A stretch of 63,100 nt of DNA, filler included, from Malassezia furfur (taxonomy: Eukaryota): the NCBI GenBank assembly GCA_052055015.1. It is 9 parts of 9 records of this genome, joined end to end, with 100 filler letters (N's around TTAATTAATTAA, not from the genome) between each part and the next. Parts side by side here need not be neighbours in the genome. Positions count along the whole stretch, not along the records: positions 35,350 to 42,221 come from JBQJIT010000519.1; 8 more parts are not named here. One strand, given 5' to 3'. The translations under genes and the position numbers were made by a program. Of the stretch, positions 1,071-56,248 are shown one piece after another; positions within the stretch are counted from its first letter, which is position 1; every line of letters begins with the position of its first letter. The notes below the pieces were generated by a model. The model searched no databases, had not been told where the DNA came from, and saw only the letters and a list, made by a program, of their open reading frames with translations.

Positions 1071-1162
1071 GCCGCGTCGACGTGGGAGCGCGCGCTGCGC
1101 GCCCGGCGCCCTCGCTCGGCCGGACCTCCACCCGCGCGCGCCCAATCCCCCCGTCACCCCCG

Positions 1163-2856: not shown

Positions 2857-2870
2857 CCGAGCGCCCTCGC

Positions 2871-4451
2871 TCACACCATCACCACGCCGTTGCCCGAGCC
2901 AAACAGCGTGGGGTTCGGCACGCTTGCGCCGCCCGCGGCCGCGGGGTCCAGCTCGCGCTCGCCCGCGCGCTGCCCAAGCCCGCCCGCAAGCGGCGGCACA
3001 CGCCAGTTGAACAGGTAGAAGCGCAGAAATCCGTCCCCGGGGCCAAACTTGAGGTCGGGCGCAAACATGGGGTTGTCGAGCACCGTCAGGCAGTTGACCA
3101 CGTCGAAGCGCTGCTGCTTCGCCAGGACGAGCATGTCGGTCATGAGCGCTTGCAGCCGCGTCTTGAGCGCCTCGCGCTGCTCCACGGGCTCCTCGTACCA
3201 CGGGCGCACGTCGGCCTCGTCGGCAAGCTCGGCGTTCGTCAGCTTGCTCAGCCCGGCGCACTCCCACGCCGCCGCGCCGCCGCTCCGCGCCGCGTCGTAC
3301 GCCGACGGGCCCTCGGCCACGTCCGGGCGCGGGAGCACCGGTGCGCTCCACGCCGCTTCGGTCGCGTAATAGAAGAGGTAGGCGGCCTCGAGCGTGTCAT
3401 GCTGGTCGTGCTCAAGGATGGAGGAGGGCAGCGAGTAGAACGAAAAGAAGTCGGTGATGTGCCCGTCGTCGCGCGCCACGACCCACGTCCACGTCACCTG
3501 GCCCTTGCGCGCGACGCCGTCCGCGGCACCGCCGCGCCCGCTGAGCAGGAGGTGCGCGACCTCGGCGTCCGTGTAGCGCGGCGCCATATCAAAGCGGCGC
3601 AGGAAGCGGCGCAGCAGACGTGCGACCTGCGGCACGTCCTCTGGCACCATCTCGCGCAGGCCAGGCAGCGCCGTCTTCTTCGGCAGGTGGAAGCGCGCGA
3701 TGTGCGCATCGCGCGACATGCCCTGCGGCACGGCGCTGAAGCCAATGTCGAGCAGCTTGGACGCATTCAGTGTGCGGTGGTAGTAGCGCGAGCACGACAC
3801 GGGCGTTGGCAGCACGGAGCCGACGGTATAGATCGCCTGGAAGATGCCCGAGCGGTTGCACCGCCGCGTCACCTCCTTGATGAGCACGGGAGCGAACCGC
3901 TTGCTGCGCAGTTTCTTGTGCACGCACAAGAAGTTGATTTCGACCGACTGCCGCGCCATGTCGCGCACGCGCAGCTCCTGCGGGATGCCCGCGATGAATG
4001 CCACGAGCTTGTTGGTCGACACGACCCGCACGCCGACGTGCCACGACTTGTCGTAGCCTGGGTGCCGCAGCACCCAGTGCAGGAATGCAGGCGAGTACTT
4101 GAACCGCATCGTCGAGTCGTCGTCCTCGACGTAGTTCGCCGTGAGCAGCTCGTACACCTCGTGCAGCTGCGCCTCGTCATCCATGTCGACCGTGACCCAC
4201 GTAAAGTCGGGCGGCAGTGGGTACGGCGTCGCGCGCACCTGCTCGGGCGCGAGGTCGGGGTGGATGGGCCCGGCGTCCAGCGCAGGGCTGTCGCCCGGCT
4301 GGGCGACTGGCTGCGTCTTCCAGAACTTGTGCTCGCTCGGCGGAGGCTTTGGCGCAGCTGCACCGCTGCCGCTGCCGCCGTCAAGCATCGCCATGAGCCG
4401 CGCGAGGTTGTGCAGCGAGGCGGCGTCCTTGCGTTCTTCTTCTGGGGGCAT
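2871..4451 (-). CDS. NMT1: Glycylpeptide N-myristoyltransferase
   Basis: HKFWKTQPV, NYVEDDD, EINFLCVHKKLRSKR, KFGPGDG motifs; C-terminal GVVMV. Confidence 0.97.
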   Translation of the reverse strand: MPPEEERKDAASLHNLARLMAMLDGGSGSGAAAPKPPPSEHKFWKTQPVAQPGDSPALDAGPIHPDLAPEQVRATPYPLPPDFTWVTVDMDDEAQLHEVYELLTANYVEDDDSTMRFKYSPAFLHWVLRHPGYDKSWHVGVRVVSTNKLVAFIAGIPQELRVRDMARQSVEINFLCVHKKLRSKRFAPVLIKEVTRRCNRSGIFQAIYTVGSVLPTPVSCSRYYHRTLNASKLLDIGFSAVPQGMSRDAHIARFHLPKKTALPGLREMVPEDVPQVARLLRRFLRRFDMAPRYTDAEVAHLLLSGRGGAADGVARKGQVTWTWVVARDDGHITDFFSFYSLPSSILEHDQHDTLEAAYLFYYATEAAWSAPVLPRPDVAEGPSAYDAARSGGAAAWECAGLSKLTNAELADEADVRPWYEEPVEQREALKTRLQALMTDMLVLAKQQRFDVVNCLTVLDNPMFAPDLKFGPGDGFLRFYLFNWRVPPLAGGLGQRAGERELDPAAAGGASVPNPTLFGSGNGVVMV

Positions 4452-4538
4452 GGTCGTCAAGCACGTGGCACTCCACCCAGTCTAACCCCCTACCCCTCCA
4501 CCACCGCCGCCGCCGCCACTTTTGCGTCCGCGTGGGCC

Positions 4539-5507
4539 ATGGTACGTGTTTTTGTGCTGACCCAGTCGTATGGCTTCCTGAACAAGCAGAACACCGCGAA
4601 TGCGGGGTCATCCTCCGCAGAGACACCCATCCTCTGCGAAACATGTCTCGGGCCGAACCCATACGTGCGCATGTCGCGCCAGCACCTCGGCAAGGAGTGC
4701 AAAGTGTGCGGCCGGCCGTTTACCGTCTTCCGCTGGAACCCCGGCGCGGGGATGCGCTTCAAGAAGACGGAGATCTGCACGACCTGTGCCAAGCTCAAGC
4801 ACGTGTGCCAGACGTGCATCCTTGACCTCGACTACCACCTCCCCACGCACGTCCGTGATGCGGCGCTCCACATCCAAAGCGCGATACCCACGTCGGACAT
4901 CAACCGGCAGTACTATGTGAACCGCATGGAAGCGCTCATGGACGACGAGCAGGCCGCGCCGCAGACGGGACCTGCGCGCGGCGCGGCACATGCGACGCTC
5001 CAAAAGCTCGCGCGCGATACGCCGGACTACAAGCGCAATCGGCCGCAGATCTGCTCGTTCTACGCGCGCGGCGCGTGCACACGCGGCGAAGCGTGCCCGT
5101 ACCGGCATGAGATGCCGAGCGACGCGCCGCGGCAGAGCATTGCCGACCGCTACCACGGCACCAACGACGTCGTGGCGAAGCACATGCTCCAGCGCCTTGC
5201 GCAAGCGAAAGGGCTGACGCCGCCCGCGAACGAGGCCATCATGTCGCTCTTCCTCTCCGGACTGCCCGAGATCAGCGAGGACGGCGTGCGTGCCGCGTTC
5301 CTGGAGAGCGTGCCGGGCCTGCATGCAGACGACATCCGCCAGGTGACGCTGGTGCCGGCGTCGCACTGTGCGTTTGTCAACTTTGCGACGCGTGCGGCCG
5401 CCGAGCGCGCCGCCGAGAGCCTCGCGGTGAAGGTGGAGATTGATGGCAAAGAGGTGCGTGTGGCGTGGGGCCGAACGCCCGCCAAGTCGCGCGAAAAGGA
5501 AACATAG
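4539..5507 (+). CDS. SLT11: Pre-mRNA splicing factor Slt11/RBM22, intron 4542-4565 immediately after ATG
   Basis: PILCETCLGPNPYVRM, ECKVCGRPFTVFRW, KKTEICTTCAKLKHVCQTC, CCCH finger and C-terminal RRM. Confidence 0.93.
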   Translation: MVRVFVLTQSYGFLNKQNTANAGSSSAETPILCETCLGPNPYVRMSRQHLGKECKVCGRPFTVFRWNPGAGMRFKKTEICTTCAKLKHVCQTCILDLDYHLPTHVRDAALHIQSAIPTSDINRQYYVNRMEALMDDEQAAPQTGPARGAAHATLQKLARDTPDYKRNRPQICSFYARGACTRGEACPYRHEMPSDAPRQSIADRYHGTNDVVAKHMLQRLAQAKGLTPPANEAIMSLFLSGLPEISEDGVRAAFLESVPGLHADDIRQVTLVPASHCAFVNFATRAAAERAAESLAVKVEIDGKEVRVAWGRTPAKSREKET

Positions 5508-5531
5508 TGGCTATGTAGACGACGTGCAAGT

Positions 5532-6382
5532 CTACTTGCGACCCTTGCCCTTGGCCTTTTTGGTGGTGATCGGCGTGCCCTCGCGCGCCTCGCGCCCACC
5601 GCTCATCCAGTCGAGGTCGCCCTCGTCAAACGACACGGCCTGCTCGACCTGCACGGCGGCCGCAGCGTCCTCGGCGAAGCGGCGGCGGAAGCGGCCGAGG
5701 CGGCCCGTGTCGTCCTCCGTGTCGCTCTGCGCCGCGCGGCCCATCGTCGGGTTCCACAGCGGGTTGTTGGTGATGTCGCGCGTGAGGCGCACGAGGTGGC
5801 GCGGCGACGTCGTCGTGAGCTGGATCGACGAGCCATCGGCAAGGATGACACGCTGCGGGAACTGCGCGACAGGGCGCGGCAGCGGCGCGGCGCGGGCGTC
5901 CGGGCTGGCGCGCGTCGCGTAGGTGCGGGCGTGCATCCTCGCGTCGGGCCGCGCGTGTGTGTGCAAGTGGGCCGAGGAGCACGGCGTGCGCCGGCCCTGG
6001 GTGCGCTGGATCTCGTCCATCGATGGCGCGCGGCGGGAGCGGCGGATGGTGTCGTTCGAGCCCAGCTCGGTGTCCTTGGTGAAGCGGAGCTCTGTGGTGA
6101 GCCTTTCCAGCACGTACTGTACTTGTGCGGGTCGTCCTCGCCTGCGACGCCCTGCACGACGTTGTGCCGGAAGAGCGCGGCGACCTGCTCGCCCATGGCG
6201 AGACCATCGTCGATTTTCTGAGCGTCGGTCTCGTTGCGAGCCTCGAGGAACCGCCGGCGGGTCTCGTCGTGTGCGGCACGCACTGCGCGCTCGTCACCCG
6301 CAAACACGGTGCGCGTCGTGCGCAGCAGCGTGCGGTACAGCGCGGTCGCGCGCCGCTGCTGCACGGGCGAAAAGGCCGACAT
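5532..6382 (-). CDS. Fusion of Mzm1/LYRM7 (complex III Rieske chaperone) and mitoribosomal bL31m (MrpL36); intron 6092-6117; 274 aa
   Basis: N-half: ALYRTLLR...FAGD...RHNVVQG...KDTELGSNDTI (Mzm1); C-half: VILADGSS...TRDITNNPLWNP...GRLGRFRRRF (bL31m); no stop between them. Confidence 0.85.
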
Positions 6383-6488
6383 GGTGGCTGTAAGACACGT
6401 GGGTCCACGTGATGTTGGCGGCGCAGCGACCGCGCCCCGGGAGGGTGGCAATCGGCCGGGCTGCGTCGACCACCACACCGATAGGAGG

Positions 6489-7058
6489 ATGGTGTCTGCC
6501 GGGGGACGAGTGTACGTCGCTACCACACTAACGCAGCTCGCGCAAGGTGCGCATCACCGTCGTGGCCGCAGATGGGCTCGCCAAGGTACGTGGGCCGCCG
6601 CCGTGCGGCGGGGAGGGCAGACAGACTAACCCCAGCGCGATGTGTTCCGCTTGCCGGACCCGTTTGCCATTGTCACCGTCGACGGCGAACAGACGCACAC
6701 AACGTCCGTCATCAAGAAGACGCTCAACCCGTACTGGAATGACTCGTTCGATATCACCGTGAACGACGCCTCGGTCGTCGCCGTGCAAATCTTTGACCAG
6801 AAAAAGTTTAAAAAGCGCGACCAGGGCTTCCTCGGCGTGATCAACGTGCGCGTCGCCGACGTCATTGACCTCGAGCTTGGCGGCAAGGCGCTGCTCACGC
6901 GCGACCTGAAGAAGTCGAACGACAACCTCGTCGTGCACGGCAAGCTTATTATCGACCTCAACACCAACGTCGGCGGTCCGGCCGACAATGCAGCGCCGCC
7001 GTGAGTGCCCCGGCGCCGCCGCAGGCGCCACGGGCGCGGCACGCACCGGCTCGTCGTG
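6489..7058 (+). CDS. RSP5: Rsp5/Nedd4 E3 ligase, N-terminal C2 domain (partial); introns 6512-6536, 6586-6635
   Basis: [49 protein letters not shown]...[17 protein letters not shown]. Confidence 0.93.
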
Positions 7059-7158
7059 NNNNNNNNNNNNNNNNNNNNNNNNNNNNNNNNNNNNNNNNNN
7101 NNTTAATTAATTAANNNNNNNNNNNNNNNNNNNNNNNNNNNNNNNNNNNNNNNNNNNN
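7059..7158. other. Artificial contig spacer (N44-TTAATTAATTAA-N44)
   Basis: 100-nt N run with a central all-frame stop linker, repeated identically 8 times. Confidence 0.99.
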
Positions 7159-7181
7159 CTCTGCTCTACTACTATACACCG

Positions 7182-7620
7182 CTAGGCAATATTCCGTAGG
7201 ACTGTGTGAGCGCTGTGCACCACCTACCCAGCACGACCGAGTCGCCACGCAAAAACATTTTCGAGATAAAGCGGTCCTTCTGTGGTGAGTGGGGGCGGCG
7301 ACGCACGTTGACGGGCTTCTTGTTCTTGCTTTTCGGCTGCGTCAGTGCTGGACACGTACCACCTCGGTCCACATCTCCTTGACGTTCTCGAGCACCATGT
7401 TCGAGTGCCGGTCAAACGCCTTGACGCGCGCGAGGAGCTTCTTGTTGTTCCGCAGCGAGATGAGCACCTGCGTGTGGTTGCGCACGGACTGCTGCAGCAC
7501 GGAGAGCGGCCCCTGCGAGATCTCGTACTGCTCGAGCTCGCGGATCTGCGCCTCGTCGAGCTCCGACTTGGGCACGTTCACGTATTGACTGCGTCAGCGC
7601 CGCGCCGCTGCCTACCTCAT
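7182..7620 (-). CDS. SMD2: Sm protein D2; introns 7589-7615, 7337-7359, 7280-7306, 7202-7227
   Basis: Spliced product [12 protein letters not shown]...[50 protein letters not shown]...[23 protein letters not shown]. Confidence 0.96.
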
Positions 7621-7668
7621 GGTCGCCGCGAGAAAGCCACGTGACCGACGTTTCTTCGCCCCGACCAT

Positions 7669-10100
7669 ATGAGCGTTACGGTAGTGCTGGACCCGGCCGC
7701 GCGGCTTCCGTTTGTGTCGCCGATCGTGCTGGTGAATGTCGCCGAGGAACACGGAAACAAGGACGTCAAGCTGGACTATGCAGTGAACGAGGGCCCCGCC
7801 GCGACGCTTGCCGACGGCCGCCGCGTCGAGGGCGGCCTGGCGGTGCTGCAGGCGCTCACGTCGCTGTATGCGCCGCTCGGCCTCGCCGGCAGCGACGCGG
7901 AGCGCAGCGCGGTCGACGCGTTTGTGGTGCAGTCGGACACGCTCGCCGCCGCGCCGTTCCAGGAGGCGACGCAGCGCGCCGACGACCTCGACCAGCACCT
8001 GGCGCTGCGCACCTACCTGGTCGGCCACCGCGTGACGGCGGCCGACGTGGCGATCTGGGGCGCGATCCGCTCGTCGTCGCCGCTGCTCGGCATCATCAAG
8101 AAGCACGCGCACACGCACCTCGCGCGCTGGTACGCTCACCTCGACGCGCTGCCGGCGTTTTCGTCGGCGGTGGCCGCCATGGCGCACGCCAAGAGCCACA
8201 TGTTCAAGGAGAAGAAGACGGCGGCGGGCTTTGACCTGTTCCTCAAGGGCGCGAAGGAGGGCGAGGTGGTGACGCGGTTCCCCCCTGAGCCGTCCGGCTA
8301 CCTGCACGTCGGCCACGCGAAGGCCGCGATCCTGAACCAGTACTTTGCGCAGGCGTACAAGGGCAAGCTTGTGGTGCGCTTTGACGACACGAACCCCAGC
8401 AAGGAGAAGCAGGAGTTTGAGGACTCGATCCTCGAGGACCTCAAGCTGCTCGGCATCACGGGCGACGTGGTGACGCACACGTCGGACTACTTCCAGGAGC
8501 TGCACGACCTCGCGGTGCGCCTGATCAAGCAGGGCGATGCGTATGCGGACGACACGCCGCAGGAGGAGATGCGTGCGCAGCGCATGGACGGCCTGCCGAG
8601 CCAGCGGCGCGACGCGAGCGTCGAGGAGAACCTCGCGCGCTTCGCGGAGATGTGCCGCGGCACCGACGAGGGGTGCCGGTGGTGCCTGCGCGCCAAGATG
8701 AGCGTCGACAACCCCAACAAGGCGATGCGCGACCCGGTGATCTACCGGTGCAACGTCGACACGCCGCACGCGCGCACGGGCACGACGTGGAAGGCGTACC
8801 CCACGTACGACTTCTGCTGCCCCGTCGTGGACAGCCTCGAGGGGATCACGCACGCGCTGCGCACGAACGAGTACCACGACCGGAACCCGCAGTACCAGTG
8901 GTTCCTCGAGAAGCTCGGCCTGCGCCACGTGGACATTTGGGACTACGGCCGGATGAACTTTGTGTACACGCTGCTGTCGAAGCGCAAGCTGCAGTGGTTC
9001 GTGGACCACGGCATCGTGCCCGGCTGGGACGACCCGCGCTTCCCGACGGTGCGCGGCATCCGCCGTCGCGGCATGACCATCGACACGATCCGCCAGTTTA
9101 TCCTGTCGCAGGGCCCCTCGCAGCAGATCGTCAACATGGAGTGGGACAACGTGTGGGCGCTCAACAAGCGCCTGCTCGACCCCGTGGTGCCGCGGTACGT
9201 GGCGCTGGACGAGGCGAAGCTCGTCCCGGCGACGCTCGCCAACGCGCCGCCCGCCGAGGAACGCCAGGTGCCGCGCCACAAGAAGAACCCCGAGCTCGGC
9301 ACCAAGACGACCGTGTTTGACGCGGCGATCCTCATCGAGCAGGCGGACGCCGCGTCGTTCGGCGACAACGAGGAGATCACGCTGATGGACTGGGGCAACG
9401 CGATCGTGCGCAAGAAGCACCTCGCCGCCGACGGCTCCGTCGCGTCGCTCGAGCTCGAGGCGAACCTCGACGGCGACTTCAAGGCGACCAAGAAGAAGGT
9501 GACGTGGCTCGCGCAGCCGAACGCGACGCGCCACCTGACGCCGGTGGTGCTGGAGGACTTCGACTACCTGATCACCAAGAAGAAGCTCGAGGAGGACGAC
9601 AAGTTCACCGACTTCCTCTCGCCGCAGACGCGCTTCACCACCGAGGCGCTCGCGGACGCCAACGTCGCCGCGCTCGCCGAGGGCGACGCGATCCAGTTCG
9701 AGCGCAAGGGCTACTTCATCCTCGACCAGGTGCAGGGCCCCGACGGCCGCCGCGTGTTTATCCGCATCCCGGACGGCCGCGCGGCGTCGAGCGCGAGCAA
9801 GGCGGCGCCCGACGAGAATCCCGCCGAGAAGAAGGCCGCCGCCGCCGCCGCGCGCGCGAAGAAGGCCGCGGAGAAGGCCGAGAAGGCGAAGCAGAAGGAG
9901 GCGAAAAAGGCCGCCGCCGGCGGCCGCGGCGCCAAGCCGGTCGCCGACTCGGTGCAGGGCCTGATCGACGAGGGCACGCAGAAGGTCAACATGTACGCGC
10001 TGCCCAACATCAACGAGCCCACCGACACGCAGCCGCAGAGTACGTCGTGACGTCACTGACCCGCTTAGCCAAGATGTACCACGTGCGGCCCATTATGTAG
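7669..10100 (+). CDS. GUS1: Cytosolic glutamyl-tRNA synthetase with GST-like N-domain; intron 10040-10068
   Basis: TRFPPEPSGYLHVGHAKA (HIGH), LSKRKL (KMSKS-like), GWDDPRFPTVRG, IQFERKGYF. Confidence 0.97.
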
Positions 10101-14180: not shown

Positions 14181-14280
14181 NNNNNNNNNNNNNNNNNNNN
14201 NNNNNNNNNNNNNNNNNNNNNNNNTTAATTAATTAANNNNNNNNNNNNNNNNNNNNNNNNNNNNNNNNNNNNNNNNNNNN
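14181..14280. other. Artificial contig spacer
   Basis: N run with TTAATTAATTAA. Confidence 0.99.
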
Positions 14281-21221: not shown

Positions 21222-21321
21222 NNNNNNNNNNNNNNNNNNNNNNNNNNNNNNNNNNNNNNNNNNNNTTAATTAATTAANNNNNNNNNNNNNNNNNNNNNNN
21301 NNNNNNNNNNNNNNNNNNNNN
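21222..21321. other. Artificial contig spacer
   Basis: N run with TTAATTAATTAA. Confidence 0.99.
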
Positions 21322-28239: not shown

Positions 28240-28339
28240 NNNNNNNNNNNNNNNNNNNNNNNNNNNNNNNNNNNNNNNNNNNNTTAATTAATTAANNNNN
28301 NNNNNNNNNNNNNNNNNNNNNNNNNNNNNNNNNNNNNNN
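28240..28339. other. Artificial contig spacer
   Basis: N run with TTAATTAATTAA. Confidence 0.99.
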
Positions 28340-30849: not shown

Positions 30850-31202
30850 CCTTCAGAGGGACCGTCCCATCGGGCCGCCACGACTGCACTTGGGCCCAAA
30901 CGCTACGGGATTAATTTAGCGATAACACCGTTTTAGACTTTTTAGGCCGTGTTAGAAAAAAATCCGCACGCAACATGACGCTGTCGGACAGAAGATTTCG
31001 ATTGCGGGCGGCCCAAACGCCGTGTCACGATTACAAATAAAAATGGACCTAAAAGGTACCCTTAGGATGTTACGGCGTAGCGACTTATGATCGTCATGTA
31101 TTTACCTAATAGGCTAAAATCCGTGCCCGGCATGTTGGTGGCCTTGTAGGCCCGTGTCTCGAATCTTCGAGCTGCTCGCTTGCACGACGCACGATCGAAC
31201 CC

Positions 31203-34001
31203 ATGTGGCGAGCGCAGCCGGGCGTCTCGTGGACCGATCTCGGCCTGGTCGCGAAATCGGCAGGGCGCTTGGCGCAGCAGGTGGCCTTAGCGCGCCCACA
31301 GGCGCCTGCAGCTGCTGCGGGTGCGTGGCCGACGCAGCGCTCCGCACCGGAAGAAAAGGAGGGTGTGTGGGATGCGACCCCTCGTGCCGCTCCGTCGGCG
31401 CCATTCCCAGGCGCTGCGCAACCAAAACGCGCGCCAAGCACACCATGGCCCTCGAAGCAGGCCGCGGGTCGTGAGTCGAGCCGTGTTCCGGAGCAACCTG
31501 CACCGGTTGCATCGCCGGTGCCGCCGCAAGAAGAACGGCGTGCATCGGTCTCAACTGAGCCGTCCACCCCGGTCAGCGGCGAGGCGCCCATCAAGGCGCG
31601 TGTGGATGCGCCGACATTGGAGCTGAGGAGTGCAAGCGCGTCGCGCACGGATGCGCCGGAGCCGTCTTTGGCAAGCTCAAAGCCGTCGGCGCCGTCGGCG
31701 CCGACGCGCGCAGATGCCGCCGCCGAGGTCGCACAGGGGCTTGAGCAGACAGCTGCAACGGCCGTGCGAGGTGCTGCAGAGACCGTGAAGGAGAATGCGA
31801 CTCCGTCAGCACACACCGAGTCGACAAACGCAGCCCCTATCTCCCCGAGCGCTGCAGTGGTCGAGGACGAGTACGATGCGGCGACCGAGGAGCGTGCGAC
31901 GCCGCTGCGTGCGGCTCGTGTGCCCTCGTCGCGTCTTGGGCGCCTACTGCATTATGGAAGTCTGGGCGCTGGCCTCGCATGGGGCTCGGCGGGCGAGTAT
32001 CTGCGCCGCGCGACGGGTCCGTCGGACGCGTCTGGACGTTCGTCGCCGTTCCTGTCGGAGGCCAACGTGAACCGACTGGTGGATAAGCTGAGCACGATGC
32101 GTGGCGCGGCGCTCAAGCTCGGCCAGTTCCTGAGCATTCAGGATAGCCACATGCTCCCGCCTCAGATCGAGCAAGTGATGCTGCGTGTGCAGAACAGTGC
32201 GCACTACATGCCGGCATGGCAGCTGGAGCGTGTGATGCGCGCCGAGCTCGGAGACGACTGGCGTGCGTCGTTTGCGTCGTTTGACGAGCGGCCGTTTGCC
32301 GCGGCGTCGATCGGGCAGGTGCACAGTGCCGTGCTCGCCGACCCGTTCCCGGCGCAGCCTGATATGGCGGGCCAGCGCGTGGCGGTCAAGGTGCAGTTCC
32401 CCGGTGTGGCTGACTCGATCTCGTCCGACTTGTCGAACATCAAGTGGCTGCTGATGGCCTCGTCGTTGCTGCCGAAAGGCCTGTTTCTGGAAAACAGCGT
32501 GCGCGTGCTGCAAAAAGAGCTCGAGGAGGAGTGCGACTACACGCGCGAGGCCGAGATGGGTCGCCGCTTCCGTGCGCACATCGACGCTGGAGGCGGTGCA
32601 CCCGAAGCGCTGCGCCTCGAGGTGCCGCGTGTCGTTGATTCGCTGTGCACCCCCCGTGTGCTGACGACCGAGTTTATGCGCGGCCGGCCGCTGACCAAAG
32701 TTATGCAGCTCGACGCTGCGACGCGCGACCGCATCGGCCTGACGGTGATGGATCTGAGCCTGCGCGAGCTGTTCGAGTGGCGCCTGATGCAGACGGACCC
32801 GAACTGGACCAACTTTTTGTACAGCGAGCGCAACCAGAGCCTGCAGCTGATCGACTTTGGCGCGACGCGGCCCTACACGCCCCAATTCATGGACGCATGG
32901 ATCAGCCTGCTCCGTGCCGCCGTCGCGGGCGATCGCGAGGCGTGCGAGGCGTGGAGCGTCGCGATCGGCTACCTCAACGGCGAGGAGCCCGAGGTACGTT
33001 GCCGCCCCATCACTGACCCAGACCATGCGCAAGGCCCACGTCGACTCGATGGTCGCGCTCGGCGAGCCGTTCCGTGCGTCGGCGCCGCAGCCGTTCCCTT
33101 TCGCGAACCAGACCATCACGGACGAGGTGCGTGCGCAGATCCCCGTGATGCTGCGCGAGCGGCTGCGCCCGCCGCCGCCGGAAACCTACTCGCTGAACCG
33201 CAAGCTGAGCGGCGCATTCTTGTTGTGCGCACGCCTCGGCGCGCACGTCGACTGCCGTGCATTGTTCGAGCGGATCACAAACGCCTACGTGTACAGCGAC
33301 GGAACGCACAACCCCCCCTCGCCCGGCGCGTTTGCGCGCAGCGGCGCACGTGGCCTGCACACCAAGGCCGCTCGACAGCGTGCGTAGCGTGGGCTCACGC
33401 AGGACTCGGGCGCAACTTGACCGACGTGTGGGCGCGTTATCCCCTCGATGAGATGCTTGCGCAAAAGATCGCGGCCGAGGACCGTGCGGATCCCAACATG
33501 GCCGTGCCGCGGCCCAAGATTGAGTTTGTGGGCCGCGCGGCGTCGGAGCCGACTATCAACTACCTTTCTTCGGAACAGATCCGCCCCGAGGCCGCGGGGA
33601 CCGTGCGGGTGCGTGGCATCGACGTGCCGCTGCGGCCCAACCCCCCCGGTGCGGAAGACTGCTGCATGTCGGGTACGTGCGCTGCTGACAAATAAGGGTG
33701 TGTCAATTGCGTGTACAATCTGTACGCCGACGACGTGGAGGAGTGGAAGGAGGAGATGAGCGCAATCCGCGCGCGCCTGGCGGACGCTTCGCCGCCTATC
33801 ACTACGGAGGAGTGGAACCCCAAGAAACTTGGCCCGCTGCCCGGCGAGTCGAATGCCGAGGTGAAGGAGGAGGAGGCCGAGGAGGAGGCCGCGGTCGGCA
33901 CCGAGGACCCGACACTGCAAGCCTTTTTCCAGCTCGAGCAGCGCATCACACGCAAGCACCGCAATGCGGCCAAAGCGGCTGAACGGAGTTCCGAACTATA
34001 G
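31203..34001 (+). CDS. COQ8: Coq8/ABC1 atypical kinase, extended by splicing into an Oxidored-like (Oxld1/YPL107W-like) domain; introns 32994-33021, 33380-33402, 33673-33696. Coq8-only form ends at TAG 33387
   Basis: MRGAALKLGQ, FAAASIGQVH, AVKVQFPGV, MQTDPNWTNF, DFGA, PPPETYSLNRKLSG; distal part PNPPGAEDCCMSGCVNCVYNLY...LQAFFQLEQR. Confidence 0.85.
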
Positions 34002-35249: not shown

Positions 35250-35349
35250 NNNNNNNNNNNNNNNNNNNNNNNNNNNNNNNNNNNNNNNNNNNNTTAATTA
35301 ATTAANNNNNNNNNNNNNNNNNNNNNNNNNNNNNNNNNNNNNNNNNNNN
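35250..35349. other. Artificial contig spacer
   Basis: N run with TTAATTAATTAA. Confidence 0.99.
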
Positions 35350-35921
35350 CGCGGCGCAAGGCACGCGAGCCGCGCGCGCCGATCCACACGCTGCTCGGCC
35401 TGCTCGAGCACGACGCGCTGCTCGCGAACGCACAGCTCGTCGACGCGCTCATGGCGCTGCTGAACGCCATCACGAAGCCGCTCGCGAGCGCACACCCCCT
35501 GCCGGAGCCGCCGGCGTGCGCAAGTGCGCCGACGGCCGCGGTCGCGGTGCTCAGTGCGCCGCTCGCCGGCAGCGAGGTGCTGCCGATCGCGGCCGAGCGC
35601 CTCGCGAGCGTCGTGCGGCCGCTGCGCACGGCGATCAGCTCGCGCGGCTTCCAGCACACGCTCGCGGTCGCGGCGCACCTCGCGCGCCTGCGCGGCGCGC
35701 GCGACGTGCTCAGCGACGCCCTGCGCCGCGAGGCGGAGCGCGCCTCGGCAGCGCTCATCGCCGACCTCGACACGCTCGTCGCCGCCCTGCCGCCGCCCGA
35801 CGCGCCGGACACGGGCGCGGTGCGCGCCGCGCCGCTCGCCAAGCTGGCCAGCCCCACGAGCGCGCAGGCGCAGCTGCTCCGCTGCCTGCGCGCGCTCGAC
35901 TACCTGTACATGGGGAAATAG
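35350..35921 (+). CDS. TOM1: 3' end of a Tom1/HUWE1-like protein that terminates before the HECT domain
   Basis: LLGLLE...LLNAITKPL...FQHTLAVAAHL...ARDVL...IADLDTL...LAKLASPTSAQAQLLRCLRALDYLY resembles the Tom1 pre-HECT helical region (LAKFSPASSDQAKLLRVLTALDYL type). Confidence 0.75.
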
Positions 35922-35954
35922 GTCGTAGAAGTACAATGCACGGCACCGCCATGC

Positions 35955-36746
35955 CTACACAGGGGGGGCGACGTGCCCCGTATCGGACGCATCGAGCGCC
36001 GCCGCGTCCGGCGCCACGGCAGGCGCCGCCGTACGCACCTCGATCGCCTGCGCGGGGACGTCGGTCGCGGCACTCGCCGTGCTCGCCGCGCCCGCCGCGC
36101 CCGCCGCGCCGCCGTCCTCGGGGAGCGGCAGGCCAAGCAGCGAGCGCAGCATCGCGTTCTCTACACGCAGCTGCTCGACCTCCGTCGCGGTGTCCAGCGC
36201 CGCGGCACTCGCGCGCCCCGAGTCGTCCGGCTCGGTGTCCTCGCCGTCGACGAGGCGCAGCGCATCGCGCACCAGCGCACCGAGGCGCGCGATCGACGCG
36301 TCGCGGTCCTGGTGCTCGTGCCGCTGCAGCGCATCGAGCTGCTGCGTCTGCGACGCGAGCCGCGACTGGTAGTACGCAGACAGGTCCAGGCCATACTGCT
36401 GCACGGCGTGCGAAAAGCTGCGGAACTTGCCCATGACCGTCTCGAGCGTCGCCTCGCACTCGCGCAGCAGCGCGCCGAGCTGCTTCGCCTCGTGCGCCAG
36501 CATCGTGTTTTCCTGCGTGAGCTGCACGTTGAGGCGCTCCAGCTCGCTCGTGAACGTCTCTTCGGCGACGTCGACGTTGAAGCGCCGCAGCGCATAGCCG
36601 CTCTTGGCGTGCACCGCCTGGCCCTGCAGCTCGTCGATCTGCGTCTTGAGCGCATCGGCCACCTGCTTGTTCGCCGTGACCTGCGCAGAGAGGTCGAGGA
36701 TCAGCGACCACAGCCGGTCATCCTGCTCGCCGTCCGGGCCTGCCAT
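35955..36746 (-). CDS. Small coiled-coil protein, SIKE/FGFR1OP2-like (STRIPAK subunit)
   Basis: LWSLILDLSAQV...GYALRRFNVD...FTSELERLN...ENTMLAHEAKQLGALLRECEATLETVMGKFR. Confidence 0.6.
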   Translation of the reverse strand: MAGPDGEQDDRLWSLILDLSAQVTANKQVADALKTQIDELQGQAVHAKSGYALRRFNVDVAEETFTSELERLNVQLTQENTMLAHEAKQLGALLRECEATLETVMGKFRSFSHAVQQYGLDLSAYYQSRLASQTQQLDALQRHEHQDRDASIARLGALVRDALRLVDGEDTEPDDSGRASAAALDTATEVEQLRVENAMLRSLLGLPLPEDGGAAGAAGAASTASAATDVPAQAIEVRTAAPAVAPDAAALDASDTGHVAPPV

Positions 36747-36853
36747 GGGGGGTGGGTCGAGAAAAGCGCCGGGCGCACCACGCACGCCCTCCACACACAC
36801 CCCCGCGCCTCGCTTGCAGGCGCCCGCACCCACCCACTCCGCCGCGCACGCTC

Positions 36854-38589
36854 ATGCCGGACGAGCCGACGGACGCGGCGCAGCTCGCGGCCATCGCGCG
36901 GTACCTGCACACGCTCACCGGCCGCCCACACGACACGGACCGCGCGATCCTCACCGACGCGCGCGCGCTCTTCGACGTGCTCGCGGGCATCGACGCCGCG
37001 CACTTTCGCAAGCCCAAGAAGAAGCCGACCCTCGACGCCGTGTACCGCCGGCTCGTGCACTAGTACGTGCGCCGACCGCTGACCCAGCTACGAAGATGTT
37101 CTGAGCTGGGACACCGCCGTTCCGACGCTCGACGGCCTCGGCGCAGACGACCTCGCGGACGCACAGCTCGCACAGCTGCTGCGCATGGTGCTGGGCGTGA
37201 TCGCCAAGAGCGAGGCGAACGACGCACAGATCCACGCGATGCAGACGCTCCCGTACGACGACCAGATGGTGCTCATGCGCGTCATCGAGCGCGTGCTAGC
37301 CGCCGGCGACGCACGCGACGACGCGACACCGACGCCCGACGCCGCCGACACGTCGCTCGTCGCCGACGCACGCGAGGTCGATGCGCTGCGCCGCGAGCTC
37401 GCGAAGCAGACGGAGCGCGCGACGTTGTACCAGGACCAGCTCGCGAGCGTCGAGGCGCACCTCCAGCGCGTCACGGAAGAGCACGGCGAAATGGCCGCCG
37501 AGCTGCCGACGCTGCGCGAGCGCGAGCGCGAGCGCATCGCGCTGCGCGACCAGCTCGACGAGTGGCGCCCGCTCGTCGAGCTCAGCAAGCGGCACGAGGC
37601 GCAGCTCGCCAAGTACCGCGAGCGGCTCGACGAGATGGGCACGCTCCGGCGCGAGCTGCAGGCCCTGCGTGCCGAGCGGACGCCGGCGCAGAGTGGCGCC
37701 GCATCGAGCGACACGGCGCCGGGCGCCGCGTCCTCGACGCTGCTGCTCGAGCGCCAGCTTGCGGCGCTCCAGGAAGAACACGCAGAGCTGCAGCAGGCGC
37801 ATGCGGCGCTCGTGGCGCGCTCCGCTGCGCCGTCCGATGCGGCGGCTCCCGACGTGCACGACGCGGCCAAGAGCGACACGTCGCGCGCGACCGACACCAT
37901 CGCGTCGCTGCGCAGCGAGGTGTCGCAGCTCCAAAAGCAGCTCGCCCAGACGCAGCTGGGCGGCCACGCGCCCGACCACGACACCGTCTCGCCCGAACAG
38001 CGCCAGTCGCAGCTCGCGGCCGTGCACGCGGACATCACGGCGATGCGCAACAATGCGCGGTCGAAGGAGAAAGAGGCCCAGTACGTCGCTTCGCGCCAAC
38101 TCACCCAGGTCGCTCCTGCGCAAGCTCGCGAAAAAGTACCCCTCCGACAAGAAGGAGGGCAAGTCGGCCTCCGGGCGCTCCACGCCGAAAGAGTTCCGCT
38201 CCGTGCTCGACCTGCTCACCGAGTCGTTCCGGCTGGACGACGTCGTGACACAGCGCCTGTTTACGTGCTGGGACGAGGCCAATCAGTCGCGCGCCGCGGC
38301 GCACCACAACGAGGAGGCGCCGGCGTCCGACGAGGCGCTGCGCGCCGTCCAGCGCGAGCGCGATCAGCTGCGCCGCGAGCTCCGGCTGATGGCCTCGGCG
38401 TACCACACGCTCGGGCAGCGCGTGTACCGCGAGACGAGCTGGGACCCGCTGGGGGCAGTGGCACCGATGCCCACGGCGCCCGCCGCGGACCCCGCCACGT
38501 ACACCCCCACGCCGGCGCCGGCGCAGACCTCGTGGCTCGCGCAGCAGCGCGGCGCGCTGGCGGGCGCGTTGCGCTTTGCCAAATCATAG
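36854..38589 (+). CDS. Hook-family dynein adaptor (HookA/Hok1-like), 560 aa; introns 37063-37087, 38081-38108
   Basis: N-terminal Hook-like LLRMVLGVIAKSE...QMVLMRVIERV, central coiled coil, C-terminal LRRELRLMASAYHTLG and SWLAQQR. Confidence 0.7.
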
Positions 38590-38626
38590 CCTCCTGTACA
38601 TGGGTCTACACACATCCTATCTCTCC

Positions 38627-40345
38627 TCATCGCCGCTCGACCATCGCGTTGACCGTGTTTTTGCGGCAGTCGCGCAGGAAACTCACCAGCTCGGTGCCCC
38701 CCGTGCCCCGGATGACCGCCTCTTTGCGCTCCGTGCGGCCCTGCGGCGGGCCGGCGCGCGCGGGCTGCACAATGTACTGCATCGCAATACGCATGTGCTC
38801 GTCGCGCAGCGCCCGCAGCGCCCGCAGCGCCTCGTCGTACGCACGTACCAGCGGGTGGTCCGCGCCCGCCCACCGGCACCGCAGCACGAGCGCACGCAGC
38901 GGGTGGTCGGACCACTCGGGCTCGGCGCCGTCGTCGCGCGGTGGACCACACACGGCCTCGGTGCCGATGCCGTGCTGCAGGTGCCGCAAGAAGGCGCGGT
39001 GGTGCAGCGGCATGTACGACTGCATGCGCTCCATAAACGTCGCGTCGGACGCGGGCCGCGCCGCGCCGCTCGCCTCGGGCGCGCGCTTTGTCCGCGCATG
39101 GTCCACGTCGAGGAACAGGTCGAGCGCGTGGATCAGCGTGCTCTGCCCGGCGCTCGGGCCGGTCCACAGCGAGGGCTCCGTCGCGGCGCCCTCGAGCACC
39201 CAGCCAGGCGCACGTCCCGAGGGCGTCGTCGTGTACATCGCGTCGCCAGTCTTGAACCACGGGCGGATCTGCCAGTAAAAGGTCGCGGGGTCGCACCCGT
39301 CGCGCATCTGGCGCAGGAGCGCCGTCAGCTTGCGGATCACCTCGGCGAGCTCCTCGAGGTAGCACGCAATGCGCTTCTCGGCCAGCTCATCCACGGCGAA
39401 CGCCTCGTTGAGCGACACACGCATCAGCGTGAGCGCCTCGACGCCCTGCAGCTCGATCAGCAGCGAGATGTAGTAAAAGTGCGCCTCGGACGGCGTGTTG
39501 GTAAACGTCTCCTGCATGCGCATGTTGCTCGGCACCATGCCGCGCGCGGGGTCGATCAGCGTCCAGTTCCACAGCACCGTCGTCGCATACGTCAGCACCG
39601 GCGGCAGACCCAGCCGGTCGCTCACCGCCACAAACGGCACGGCCAGCGACGCAGGCAGGCGGCCAATGTAGGCGGCCTCGTCGTCCGCGCCGCGCCGCGC
39701 CGCGCCCCACCGCGCAAACCATCCGGTGCGCGGCTGAGCCGCGCTCGCCACGGCCGCCGCCTTCTCGGCGTCGGCCTCGTACTGGCCCACGTCGGGCTGG
39801 GCATGCATGTAAAAGTGCGTCAAGAACGCCAGGACCACACACGCACGGCGCGCGGTGCGAATGTCGTCCAGCTGCTGCGCGGTGAGGGCAATCAGCGGCA
39901 TCGCCCGGATCGCTTCGCGCCATCGGCGCGCCTCGTCCCGCTGCACCGGCCCGTCGTACCGATCGCCGATCTCCAGGGGAATGGACTTGGCCCAGTCCAG
40001 CATCGCCTCCCACAGTGAAGGGGAGGCTGTGTCGTACGTCGTGTGCTGCACGTCGTACGCGGGGCCCGCAAGGCGCTCCAGCGGAGGCTCGGGCGGCAGG
40101 AAGCCCGAACGGACATCCACATCGAAATCGGCCGCCGCCAGGGTCGACGTATCCGGGCGGCTGTCGGCAGGCCGTGGCGTCGATGCCGCCTTGGGCATCC
40201 GACGACTCAGGCCTGCCAGGATATCGCGGGGGCTTCCCGCCGGCGCTGCCGATGAGCCATGCAGGCTACTGCACTCAGCCTCGGCGCTAGGACACTCCCG
40301 CTCGGGTTCCCGCGCCAGAAAATGACCCGGCTGGATCATCGACAT
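38627..40345 (-). CDS. Indoleamine 2,3-dioxygenase (Bna2 family), intronless
   Basis: SGFLPPEPPL, LGLPPVLTYA..VLWNW, SEAHFY, FYWQIRPW, GPSAGQS, YMPLHHRAFL, LRDEH, RGTGGT..VSFL. Confidence 0.92.
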   Translation of the reverse strand: MSMIQPGHFLAREPERECPSAEAECSSLHGSSAAPAGSPRDILAGLSRRMPKAASTPRPADSRPDTSTLAAADFDVDVRSGFLPPEPPLERLAGPAYDVQHTTYDTASPSLWEAMLDWAKSIPLEIGDRYDGPVQRDEARRWREAIRAMPLIALTAQQLDDIRTARRACVVLAFLTHFYMHAQPDVGQYEADAEKAAAVASAAQPRTGWFARWGAARRGADDEAAYIGRLPASLAVPFVAVSDRLGLPPVLTYATTVLWNWTLIDPARGMVPSNMRMQETFTNTPSEAHFYYISLLIELQGVEALTLMRVSLNEAFAVDELAEKRIACYLEELAEVIRKLTALLRQMRDGCDPATFYWQIRPWFKTGDAMYTTTPSGRAPGWVLEGAATEPSLWTGPSAGQSTLIHALDLFLDVDHARTKRAPEASGAARPASDATFMERMQSYMPLHHRAFLRHLQHGIGTEAVCGPPRDDGAEPEWSDHPLRALVLRCRWAGADHPLVRAYDEALRALRALRDEHMRIAMQYIVQPARAGPPQGRTERKEAVIRGTGGTELVSFLRDCRKNTVNAMVERR

Positions 40346-40451
40346 CGCCGTCGTGAAAACGCAACCCGCGCTCCACAAGATTCTCGGCACAATTTGATCG
40401 GGCCACCTCCCCCACCGACCGGAAGACGCAAAGAGGGGTTTCTCACTGACC

Positions 40452-40920
40452 CAATATAATGGATAAAATACTTTGAACTAACTTGAAATCTATTCTTATT
40501 TTGGCTATATAATTTACAATAGCATTAAACAGAAGTTGTACGTAATATAGCAAAAAACATATAATTATATATAAAATTATATAAACCAATTCCAAGCATG
40601 CCAATGTATATTTAAGTTATTTTATAAAATAATATAGTTGATTAGGATTAGATAGTAGTGAACATATAATTTATAATATACATTATTCTAAAAAAAATAC
40701 ATAATCTATTTGATTATATTATGTTATAATTTATTATTATACAATTATAGATACATAAGATATATTCATTGTAATATTGTTCTCAGATTATTTATTCAAA
40801 TAATAAGTTTTATATTATCAATAATCATTTATAAATGGTGAAAATTGTCTTTATATTCTATCGTGTATACTTTTAATAGTTTCGCTTGTGTATATAGCTA
40901 ATATAAATTAGATATTTTCG
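40452..40920. other. AT-rich non-coding island, candidate centromere core
   Basis: Hand count 76 G+C in 420 nt (40501-40920), about 18% GC, versus about 65-70% elsewhere; no ORF; lies mid-contig between divergent genes. Confidence 0.7.
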
Positions 40921-40989
40921 GGTTCAACTCAGCGCTGCTGTGGGGTAATCAGACCGATTACGTCAAGTGGAACTTGGGCTTGCATTAAC

Positions 40990-42221
40990 ATGTGTCGACT
41001 ACTGGGTAGGTGGTGATGATGGTGTCTAGGTGTCAGAGCTAACCTAGTGCAGTCTTCAAGGGCACAGAGCCTATTCTTCTGTCGCATTTGCTCACCCGAC
41101 CGGCGCACAGCATCATCAACCAGGTACGTCGTGGATCCAGCTCTGCGCCTCGTGATACTGACACGGTCGCCCAGGCGTTCGACTCGCGCCTTCGCATCGA
41201 CATGAACCAGCCCATCAATGTACGTCCCAGGCAATATTGGCGGTGACTGACACTGCTAGGGCGATGGTTTTGGTGTCGGCTGGTATGACTCGACGTGGGA
41301 CTCGGAACTCGGCGAGGCGCCCTGTATCTTTACCAGTGTGACACCGGTAGGTACCCATGGGCTGCAGCGTACTGACCCAGGCCTGGAACAATGTCAACTT
41401 GCATCGCATTGCGGAAAAGATCAAGAGCCCGCTGGTCTTGTATGTATGGCCCCCGGGTCGCTAACGTACAGTGGTCATGTGCGCGCCTCGACGGCGGGGG
41501 CGCTGAGTGAGACCAACTGCCACCCCTGGCGCTATGGGCGGCTGATGTGGTGCGTATGAAATCGCTGACAGCAGGATGCACAATGGCCAGATTTCGCAGT
41601 TTTCCAAGATCAAGCGGCGTGTGCTGGCGGCGCTGCCGGAGCCGCTGTTCCTGTGGCCACAGGGGCATACGGATTCCGAGTTTGCGTTTGCCCTGTTCCT
41701 GAGCCACCTGGGCAACCCCGAGAGCATGGACGAGTTTAGCTACCTCGAGCTCAAGGACGCGATGCTCAAGACCATCCAGAACCTCAACCAATGGTCCCAA
41801 GAGGCCAACATTCAGGAGCCGAGTTTGATGAACTTTTGTGTGACGGATGGAAAGAGCATTGTGTGCACGCGCTACGTGTCGAGCAAGGTGGACGAAGCCG
41901 CGAGCCTGGTACGTGTGTGGCTGACCCAGTACTTTTCGACCGGCACGTCGTTCTACGAGCACTCCGAAGGGGCCTACCGCATGGTCAAAGCCGACCGGCG
42001 GCAGAAGATTGTGGTGGTGGCGAGTGAGCCCCTCACGTTTGAAAAAGGTGCGTGCGGCACCGGCTGACCCGCAGCGGACTGGATGGAGATTGAGTCCAAC
42101 ACGATCCTGTGCATTACGCCCAACATGAATGTGCTGCAATACCCCATCATTGACGAATACCACACGCCGCGCACGAATGCGCCTGCGCGCAACCCCGACT
42201 TTGCGATGCGCGCTGGCTTCC
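40990..42221 (+). CDS. DUG3: Class II glutamine amidotransferase Dug3 (3'-partial); 8 introns: 41006-41052, 41124-41174, 41220-41259, 41347-41380, 41440-41471, 41550-41574, 41909-41929, 42048-42074
   Basis: Spliced MCRLLVFKG...RPAHSIINQAFDSRLR...INGDGFGVGWY...TPAWNNVNL...FGHVRAST...NCHPW...MHNG...TDSEFAF...ASEPLTFE. Confidence 0.93.
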
Positions 42222-42321
42222 NNNNNNNNNNNNNNNNNNNNNNNNNNNNNNNNNNNNNNNNNNNNTTAATTAATTAANNNNNNNNNNNNNNNNNNNNNNN
42301 NNNNNNNNNNNNNNNNNNNNN
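42222..42321. other. Artificial contig spacer
   Basis: N run with TTAATTAATTAA. Confidence 0.99.
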
Positions 42322-49192: not shown

Positions 49193-49292
49193 NNNNNNNN
49201 NNNNNNNNNNNNNNNNNNNNNNNNNNNNNNNNNNNNTTAATTAATTAANNNNNNNNNNNNNNNNNNNNNNNNNNNNNNNNNNNNNNNNNNNN
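49193..49292. other. Artificial contig spacer
   Basis: N run with TTAATTAATTAA. Confidence 0.99.
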
Positions 49293-56148: not shown

Positions 56149-56248
56149 NNNNNNNNNNNNNNNNNNNNNNNNNNNNNNNNNNNNNNNNNNNNTTAATTAA
56201 TTAANNNNNNNNNNNNNNNNNNNNNNNNNNNNNNNNNNNNNNNNNNNN
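56149..56248. other. Artificial contig spacer
   Basis: N run with TTAATTAATTAA. Confidence 0.99.

Follow-up and report, generated by a model that had tools for sequence, protein, structure and literature searches.

Does a Tom1/HUWE1 ubiquitin ligase, otherwise a single chain of 370–480 kDa, survive when its gene ends before the catalytic HECT domain, and if so, where is the HECT domain encoded? The question is raised by a 63,100-nucleotide (nt) stretch of DNA from Malassezia furfur (assembly GCA_052055015.1), referred to here in its entirety as the window, in which a reading frame at the start of contig JBQJIT010000519.1 appears to encode the end of a Tom1/HUWE1 scaffold and then stops. A first-pass annotation had read this frame as the helical block that precedes HECT in Tom1, with its stop 33 nt from that of a convergent gene and with neither a consensus intron nor room for further exons, and had proposed either fission of the gene into a scaffold and a separately encoded HECT part acting in trans, or a catalytically dead scaffold; misassembly, failure of the fragment to align to Tom1, and a full-length TOM1 elsewhere in the genome were named as what would overturn this proposal. 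The analysis presented here leaves little doubt that TOM1 has been split in two in the Ustilaginomycotina, the fungal subphylum of the human skin yeast Malassezia and the smuts, and suggests that the two products probably reassemble as separate subunits.

A Tom1/HUWE1 scaffold gene and its stop codon

Since the contig begins at position 35350, the window captures no more than the final 189 codons of the scaffold gene, whose 5′ part is cut off. The frame (35352–35918; 189 residues, P0001) has the C-terminus ...SAQAQLLRCLRALDYLYMGK, followed by TAG at 35919–35921, and the stop of the convergent gene, which belongs to the SIKE family, lies 33 nt further on; translation and the coordinates of the open reading frames (ORFs) confirmed both positions as annotated at first pass. 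There is no GT at the stop, and the 33-nt gap between the two stops is too short for further exons to fit, in agreement with that annotation. With its TAG at this place, the window gene does not carry HECT and the catalytic Cys on the same polypeptide, and a tblastn search of the whole window with a Malassezia HECT part found no HECT-like coding sequence.

To identify the frame, we ran an exhaustive phmmer search with the 189 residues against 1.84 billion representative proteins, which returned 130 matches at E ≤ 0.001, 30 at ≤1e-10, and six at ≤1e-30; the resemblance to Tom1/HUWE1 goes well past coincidence. The top match (97% identity) was the extreme C-terminus, residues 2714–2902, of a protein of 2902 amino acids (aa) (P0005), whose cluster comprises five contigs, the longest being 833,513 nt. 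HECT-bearing Tom1 proteins matched more distantly (e.g. P0029, 3373 aa, E 1e-11, with the block at residues 2686–2868), and in one-chain Tom1/HUWE1 the matched block is located ~500 residues upstream of the C-terminus. Pfam detects no domain in the 189-residue fragment alone, so the Tom1 assignment rests on homology searches: the phmmer matches, a column alignment with canonical Tom1, and a weak match in the PDB, where yeast Tom1 was the top hit of P0001 (residues 2668–2761, E 0.09). These results bear out the homology of the frame to the pre-HECT block of Tom1/HUWE1, which forms part of ARLD4 (the last armadillo-repeat domain), and remove the objection that the fragment might not align to Tom1. 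In the alignment, the break falls immediately after a conserved helix (...LLRxLxxxDYL); in one-chain proteins, this helix gives way to a low-complexity linker, after which come two to three helices (...LW..L...HVATVLLPLIESFMVV...) and, beyond another linker, HECT. DUF908, DUF913, UBA, and UBM, the domains further upstream, were seen in P0005 and in 11 further scaffolds, the window covering the last 189 codons only.

The position of the stop is shared widely among related scaffolds. In 21 of the 26 tails listed, the protein ends at the identical position (xG[KR] or RK, then stop); four others extend by 2–50 low-complexity residues without HECT, and one ends earlier. The pattern ...LRxLRAL[DEN][YW]xxxG[KR]-stop is found in the scaffold ORF of the window and likewise in L001, a 12.5-kb metagenome contig from a Malassezia-like yeast, with a tail 44% identical to that of the window. 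The scaffold ORF of L001 (2178 codons, 133–6669, plus strand, open at its 5′ end) terminates in ...LRCLRALDYLYVGK-TAG, and a convergent ORF (6678–7763, minus strand), whose stop lies just 8 nt away, shares 58% identity over 198 aa with the SIKE-family gene of the window (E 7e-80). The same stop beside the same neighbour indicates that both the gene end and the SIKE-family neighbour are conserved across species with 44%-identical tails. The scaffold stop is genuine and old.

The scaffold C-terminus is itself conserved as xG[KR]-COOH (conservation is 90% or higher at G3017 of P0253), at a place where one-chain Tom1 is variable. This terminus may have been selected after fission.

The assembly is highly fragmented, with contigs of ~7 kb, and a contig end cuts off the 5′ side of the gene; both are circumstances in which a misassembly, a chimera at the contig end, or a missed intron or exon could conceal a real gene that continues to HECT. 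We nevertheless regard such an artefact as extremely improbable. Nine named Malassezia species have the same stop, as do P0005, an independent protein encoded on an 833-kb contig, and L001, where the corresponding convergent gene lies beside it; this also disposes of the misassembly considered at first pass. No GT donor is present at the stop, and no HECT-like coding sequence in the entire window. Read-through into an intron, suggested by an ending shared with P0004 in which the GK-stop would be a G/GTAAGT donor, was considered and rejected: the codons read GGG AAA TAG here and GGG AAG TAG in L001. It is excluded as well by the convergent genes within 33 nt (window) and 8 nt (L001), and by the full-length relatives (2,800–3,800 aa) from annotated genomes that stop at the same site. 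Positions 35352–35921 very probably represent the true 3′ terminus of a Tom1/HUWE1 scaffold gene in a Malassezia-type yeast.

HECT-less scaffolds and stand-alone HECT proteins in the Ustilaginomycotina

In a Pfam scan, all 12 of the closest long relatives, P0005 included, carried DUF908, DUF913, UBA and/or UBM, and none carried HECT, which was present in each of three more distant Tom1 proteins (P0029, P0032, and P0033). A search with full-length P0005 as the query among targets of 1596–5079 aa gave 81 matches. The 36 top rows, those ranking above the first HECT-bearing match, were all devoid of PF00632, and the 22 named among them all belonged to the Ustilaginomycotina, taxonomy look-ups assigning the less familiar genera to this subphylum. 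Nine Malassezia species were represented (M. obtusa, M. yamatoensis, M. japonica, M. vespertilionis, M. caprae, M. equina, M. nana, M. pachydermatis, and M. cuniculi), M. obtusa being the closest named match to P0005 (64% identity), alongside Violaceomyces, Thecaphora, Pseudozyma hubeiensis, P. flocculosa (two records), Testicularia, Sporisorium reilianum, Ustilago loliicola, U. hordei, Microstroma, and three Tilletia species. PF00632 was found in 43 of the remaining 45 rows, and in all 19 named rows from Agaricomycotina and Pucciniomycotina (Trametes, Dichomitus, Mycena, Kwoniella, Rhodotorula, Microbotryum, Sporobolomyces, and others); the two low-ranking rows without it, from Tilletia horrida and Coemansia, are both marked partial.

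These data also bear on the notion that the HECT-less gene is a partial paralog, with a full-length TOM1 residing elsewhere in the genome. No Ustilaginomycotina record among the 81 matches is a full-length TOM1 with HECT, and the named Tom1-type HECT records of the subphylum are all of 540–774 aa among the matches listed (120 rows). A single TOM1-type HECT is counted for Ustilago maydis in Table 1 of Marin 2018 (PMC5913265). A partial paralog is, on these grounds, highly improbable.

Where the HECT domain is encoded became apparent when shorter proteins were searched with a 538-residue canonical Tom1 tail (P0033, residues 3128–3665). This identified 28 named Ustilaginomycotina proteins of 540–774 aa in which PF00632 is the sole Pfam domain, among the matches listed. 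They are 59–65% identical to the query, with best local alignments covering 81–100% of it; coverage is 93–100% in 27 of the 28, the exception being Malassezia sp. CBS 17886 (P0229; 64% identity, 81% coverage). Holders of such a HECT part include U. maydis (UMAG_03442, 571 aa), S. reilianum, Thecaphora, Ceraceosorus, Meira, Exobasidium, Parajaminaea, and Tilletia, as well as six Malassezia (M. vespertilionis, M. psittaci, M. caprae, M. yamatoensis, M. sympodialis, and sp. CBS 17886). Short HECT records from outside the subphylum were also listed, namely from Cerrena (634 aa), Diversispora (794 aa), and Mycena (432 aa), which we take to be fragmentary models. The stand-alone HECT gene that the first-pass annotation expected just after the breakpoint, in the assembly or in other Malassezia, was thus located on the second count: it occurs in protein records of other Malassezia and Ustilaginomycotina, from the breakpoint linker on.

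Each HECT part consists of a variable N-terminal extension of 50–200 aa, the Tom1 helices that follow the break, and then everything downstream. Alignability begins in the linker directly after ...LDYL, and each downstream conserved element is present. The post-break helices (...LAKIYE.F.F..LW.KLS..L.RL..DP..AQILLPLIESLMVVS...) are kept in all 27 aligned HECT parts, and the catalytic Cys (C560, in AHTCFNQLDLP) is invariant in the same 27, together with most of the HECT domain. The N-terminal extensions are lineage-specific and have no counterpart in one-chain Tom1; they could be docking or regulatory elements gained after fission. The only candidate docking motif in them, a loose hydrophobic-x-x-(I/V)-P near the start in some species (first ~90 residues of P0197), was unconvincing and was set aside.

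Mapped onto yeast Tom1, the pieces meet residue to residue, with no loss and no duplication: the scaffold block matches residues 2668–2761, and the HECT part of M. yamatoensis (593 aa) matches residues 2762–3268 (9egk_A, E 1e-170). All 12 species that appear in both lists have the two proteins on contigs of different size, for example 791,929 versus 3,109,868 nt in M. yamatoensis, 1,214,808 versus 1,788,653 nt in Thecaphora, and 555,119 versus 742,984 nt in U. loliicola, each size being that of the longest contig in the cluster and not always that of the exact record. Locus tags from the same assembly are far apart (NDA16_003752 and NDA16_003433 in U. loliicola; A4X09_0g5202 and 0g5834 in T. 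walkeri). The two genes are unlinked.

In a maximum-likelihood tree built by a quick search from the final 500 residues of 45 proteins, the 21 stand-alone HECT parts fell into one group (SH-aLRT, the Shimodaira–Hasegawa-like approximate likelihood-ratio test, 99), nested in the Basidiomycota (90) beside Agaricomycotina (nine rows) and Pucciniomycotina (five rows), with branches of ordinary length. A single group with ordinary branches is consistent with a TOM1 split that took place once, in the ancestor of the Ustilaginomycotina sampled, with normal purifying selection thereafter. Both halves appear to be under constraint, with C560 and the HECT domain invariant in 27 HECT parts, and 26 scaffolds full-length and alignable.

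With HECT-less scaffolds throughout the sampled subphylum, stand-alone HECT proteins beside them, and no linkage between the two, we consider TOM1 gene fission in the Ustilaginomycotina highly probable, much as the first-pass annotation had proposed from a single locus. In the scenario that we favour, a single TOM1 would have broken inside ARLD4, at a disordered linker after the position of yeast Tom1 residue 2761, before the Ustilaginomycotina sampled here diverged from one another. One product would be a HECT-less solenoid of 2700–3800 aa with DUF908, DUF913, UBA, UBM, and most of ARLD4, the other a stand-alone protein with the last ARLD4 helices and the HECT domain.

Several properties of the data tell against fission and have to be set beside this evidence. 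The window is without HECT coding, and the HECT part is evidenced by proteins of relatives; P0001 alone reaches yeast Tom1 in the PDB at E 0.09; the contig sizes carry the qualification given above; the tree that speaks to the origin comes from a quick search only; and the classes sampled are Ustilaginomycetes, Exobasidiomycetes, and Malasseziomycetes, three of the five named ones, Moniliellomycetes and Peribolosporomycetes being the other two.

Predicted reassembly of the two polypeptides

In yeast Tom1, ARLD4 comprises residues 2456–2889 and the HECT module residues 2890–3268, according to a preprint (bioRxiv 10.1101/2024.11.25.625210), and a cut after residue 2761 therefore falls inside ARLD4. 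Two preprints on the cryo-electron microscopy of yeast Tom1 report that the solenoid extends to residue 2888/2889, that the ring is closed by an ARLD1–ARLD4 interface of 1,122 square angstroms, and that the N-terminal head touches both the first HECT helix and the last of the ARM-like repeats. What ring opening does in HUWE1/Tom1 is described as unknown in the literature consulted. The HECT subunit of the Ustilaginomycotina holds the last ~127 residues of the solenoid, the very portion clamped by the head domain when Tom1 is a single chain.

We propose that the two polypeptides are joined by fold complementation: with its first helices, the HECT subunit would continue the stack that ends in the two terminal helices of the scaffold (Table 1), rebuilding ARLD4 and positioning the HECT domain at the ring closure. 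A second likely contact, judging from the yeast structures, would be with the N-terminal ARLD1 head, closing the ring, and the reassembled non-covalent pair would act as a two-subunit Tom1 ligase.

A complex of the M. yamatoensis scaffold (residues 2660–3018) and HECT part (residues 1–240), predicted from single sequences, received a score of 0.78 (runs at 0.79, 0.78, and 0.78), the best of three controls reaching 0.26. The same mark was attained by 51 of 78 solved complexes and by 2 of 108 mismatched pairs. The runs share at least 69% of their contacts, with a partner pLDDT (predicted local distance difference test) of at least 59. The confident part of the predicted interface joins scaffold residues 2948–3016 to HECT-part residues 92–142. 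Of 30 scaffold residues in this interface, 23 are identical in the window (P0001 residues 121–187), and 17 of the 30 positions are at least 90% conserved, versus 11 of 49 in the remainder of that tail.

Obligate assembly in trans is, in our estimation, probable, and several considerations detract from it. The prediction was run without alignments, and because the same helices pack intramolecularly in solved one-chain Tom1/HUWE1 structures, the docking result may reflect the model's memory of these; it would seem to support likeness of the interface, not binding. On the HECT part, the interface is no more conserved than its surroundings (12 of 30 positions versus 10 of 28), and since the interface residues are conserved in unsplit Tom1 too, they do not argue specifically for assembly in trans.

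The same considerations could be accommodated if the halves no longer cooperate, the scaffold being dead as a ligase or serving some purpose apart from HECT (binding of histones or ubiquitin, or chaperoning, for example), and the HECT protein acting free-standing or with other adaptors. Binding of the halves is a prediction, the variable extensions of the HECT parts could recruit other partners, and the HECT-part interface is conserved no better than its neighbours. However, the last ARLD4 helices, whose only known function is as part of the solenoid, are kept on the HECT part in 27 of 27 cases, the terminal helices are the most conserved positions of the scaffold tail, both genes are retained in 12 of the 12 species listed for both, and the predicted complex passes its controls. 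Furthermore, a closed-ring contact between scaffold and HECT, involving the N-terminal head, ARLD4, and the HECT domain, is reported to be required for full activity of one-chain HUWE1/Tom1 (PMC13196369 and bioRxiv 10.1101/2024.11.25.625210). Loss of cooperation between the halves is, on balance, distinctly improbable, and assembly in trans remains our preferred explanation.

A more elaborate form of assembly in trans would be regulation of Tom1 by the assembly itself, with the HECT subunit docking on and leaving the open end of the solenoid, so that ring closure and catalysis would be governed by subunit association instead of by the intramolecular open/closed hinge of the yeast and human enzymes; the free HECT subunit or the scaffold may also have gained separate functions. 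We put this forward tentatively and think it somewhat unlikely.

Among known systems, S. cerevisiae Tom1 (3268 aa; PDB 9egk, 9eld, 9dns, 9dnt, and 9mhp) has the same solenoid and HECT blocks, and its catalytic Cys and pre-HECT helices are conserved with the Malassezia HECT part; it is, however, one chain, whereas the Ustilaginomycotina protein is cut inside ARLD4 and encoded by separate, unlinked genes. Human HUWE1 (4374 aa; PDB 7jq9, 7mwd, and others) shares the DUF908–DUF913–UBA–UBM architecture with the scaffolds, and its HECT domain is homologous to the Malassezia HECT part (E 3e-144). Both HUWE1 and Nematocida HUWE1N (7nh1) are described as ring solenoids with ARLD1–ARLD4 closure. Unlike the Tom1 of the Ustilaginomycotina, both are single-chain proteins, and HUWE1 has a WWE domain in addition.

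In existing annotation, each half already has a gene model of its own. Orthologous pairs are present in the records, for example UMAG_03442 of U. maydis (571 aa) and the 'related to E3 ubiquitin protein ligase TOM1' of S. reilianum (3714 aa), and other record names include 'HECT-type E3 ubiquitin transferase', 'DUF913-domain-containing protein', and 'related to ubiquitin-protein ligase 1'. In Marin 2018 (PMC5913265), 33 of 204 TOM1 sequences are given as 'potentially truncated' or as having duplicated DUF908/DUF913; the word 'fission' is absent from the text of that paper. We found no published description of a split Tom1/HUWE1 in the full-text literature, supplements and subscription-only papers lying outside this search, nor, as far as consulted, does a review from 2026 on the structures of full-length HECT ligases (PMC13196369) describe one. 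What would be new is that the two halves in these records together constitute one split Tom1 in the Ustilaginomycotina, visible in the window as the last 189 codons.

If so, an entire fungal subphylum has kept, throughout its radiation, in two pieces what is elsewhere a single-chain ligase, and the covalent linkage between HECT and scaffold would be dispensable in nature. The site after yeast residue 2761 would be a permissive split site, which could ease expression, labelling, and study of the enzyme as two pieces. Annotations could be corrected accordingly, with HECT-less scaffolds being called 'HECT-type E3 ubiquitin transferase' at present and HECT halves not being recognised as Tom1. As a marker of the Ustilaginomycotina, the split would in addition offer a rare genomic change that is clean and can be dated.

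Window layout and neighbouring genes

The window is composed of nine pieces, ordered from the longest (7058 nt) to the shortest (6852 nt) and separated by eight identical artificial linkers, each made up of N44 + TTAATTAATTAA + N44. The identical linkers and descending piece sizes indicate that the window is a string of separate contigs, and features spanning any linker are artificial. The contig with the scaffold tail is the sixth piece (35350–42221), with 35350 as its first base.

Table 1. Features of the window, with positions counted along the whole stretch.
Feature	Position	Strand	Basis and remarks
3′ end of the probable Tom1/HUWE1 scaffold gene, HECT-less (189 codons + TAG)	35352–35921	+	Translation, homology; most of the final repeats of ARLD4
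Two terminal helices, predicted dock for the first helices of the HECT subunit	35712–35912	+	P0001 residues 121–187
Spacer between convergent stops, 33 nt	35922–35954	.	ORF coordinates
SIKE-family coiled-coil gene, convergent	35955–36851 (stop included)	-	PF05769, E 1.6e-4, slightly below gathering score
Coiled-coil ORF	37083–38250	+	Sub-threshold, weak matches to HOOK and CENP-H coiled-coil families
Indoleamine 2,3-dioxygenase gene	38630–40477	-	PF01231, E 4e-110
Contig-joining linkers (artificial, 8 identical, 100 nt)	7059–7158, 14181–14280, 21222–21321, 28240–28339, 35250–35349, 42222–42321, 49193–49292, 56149–56248		

On the same contig as the scaffold tail, the coiled-coil ORF is divergent from the SIKE-family gene, placing a Hook-type frame next to a SIKE-family one. 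The indoleamine 2,3-dioxygenase gene has an unusually long N-terminal extension of ~115 residues ahead of its domain, and a fragment of a class-II glutamine amidotransferase is also present on this contig beyond the SIKE-family gene.

The piece upstream of the linker that ends before 35350 encodes an ABC1/COQ8-type kinase (PF03109), unrelated to the Tom1 tail. The kinase frame (31113–33695, plus strand) matches PF03109 at residues 358–612 (E 3e-63), followed by an apparent out-of-frame stretch, with an odd translation from about residue 650, and a weak match to the N-terminal Oxidored-like family near the end; this frame probably represents two genes, or contains an intron or a frame change.

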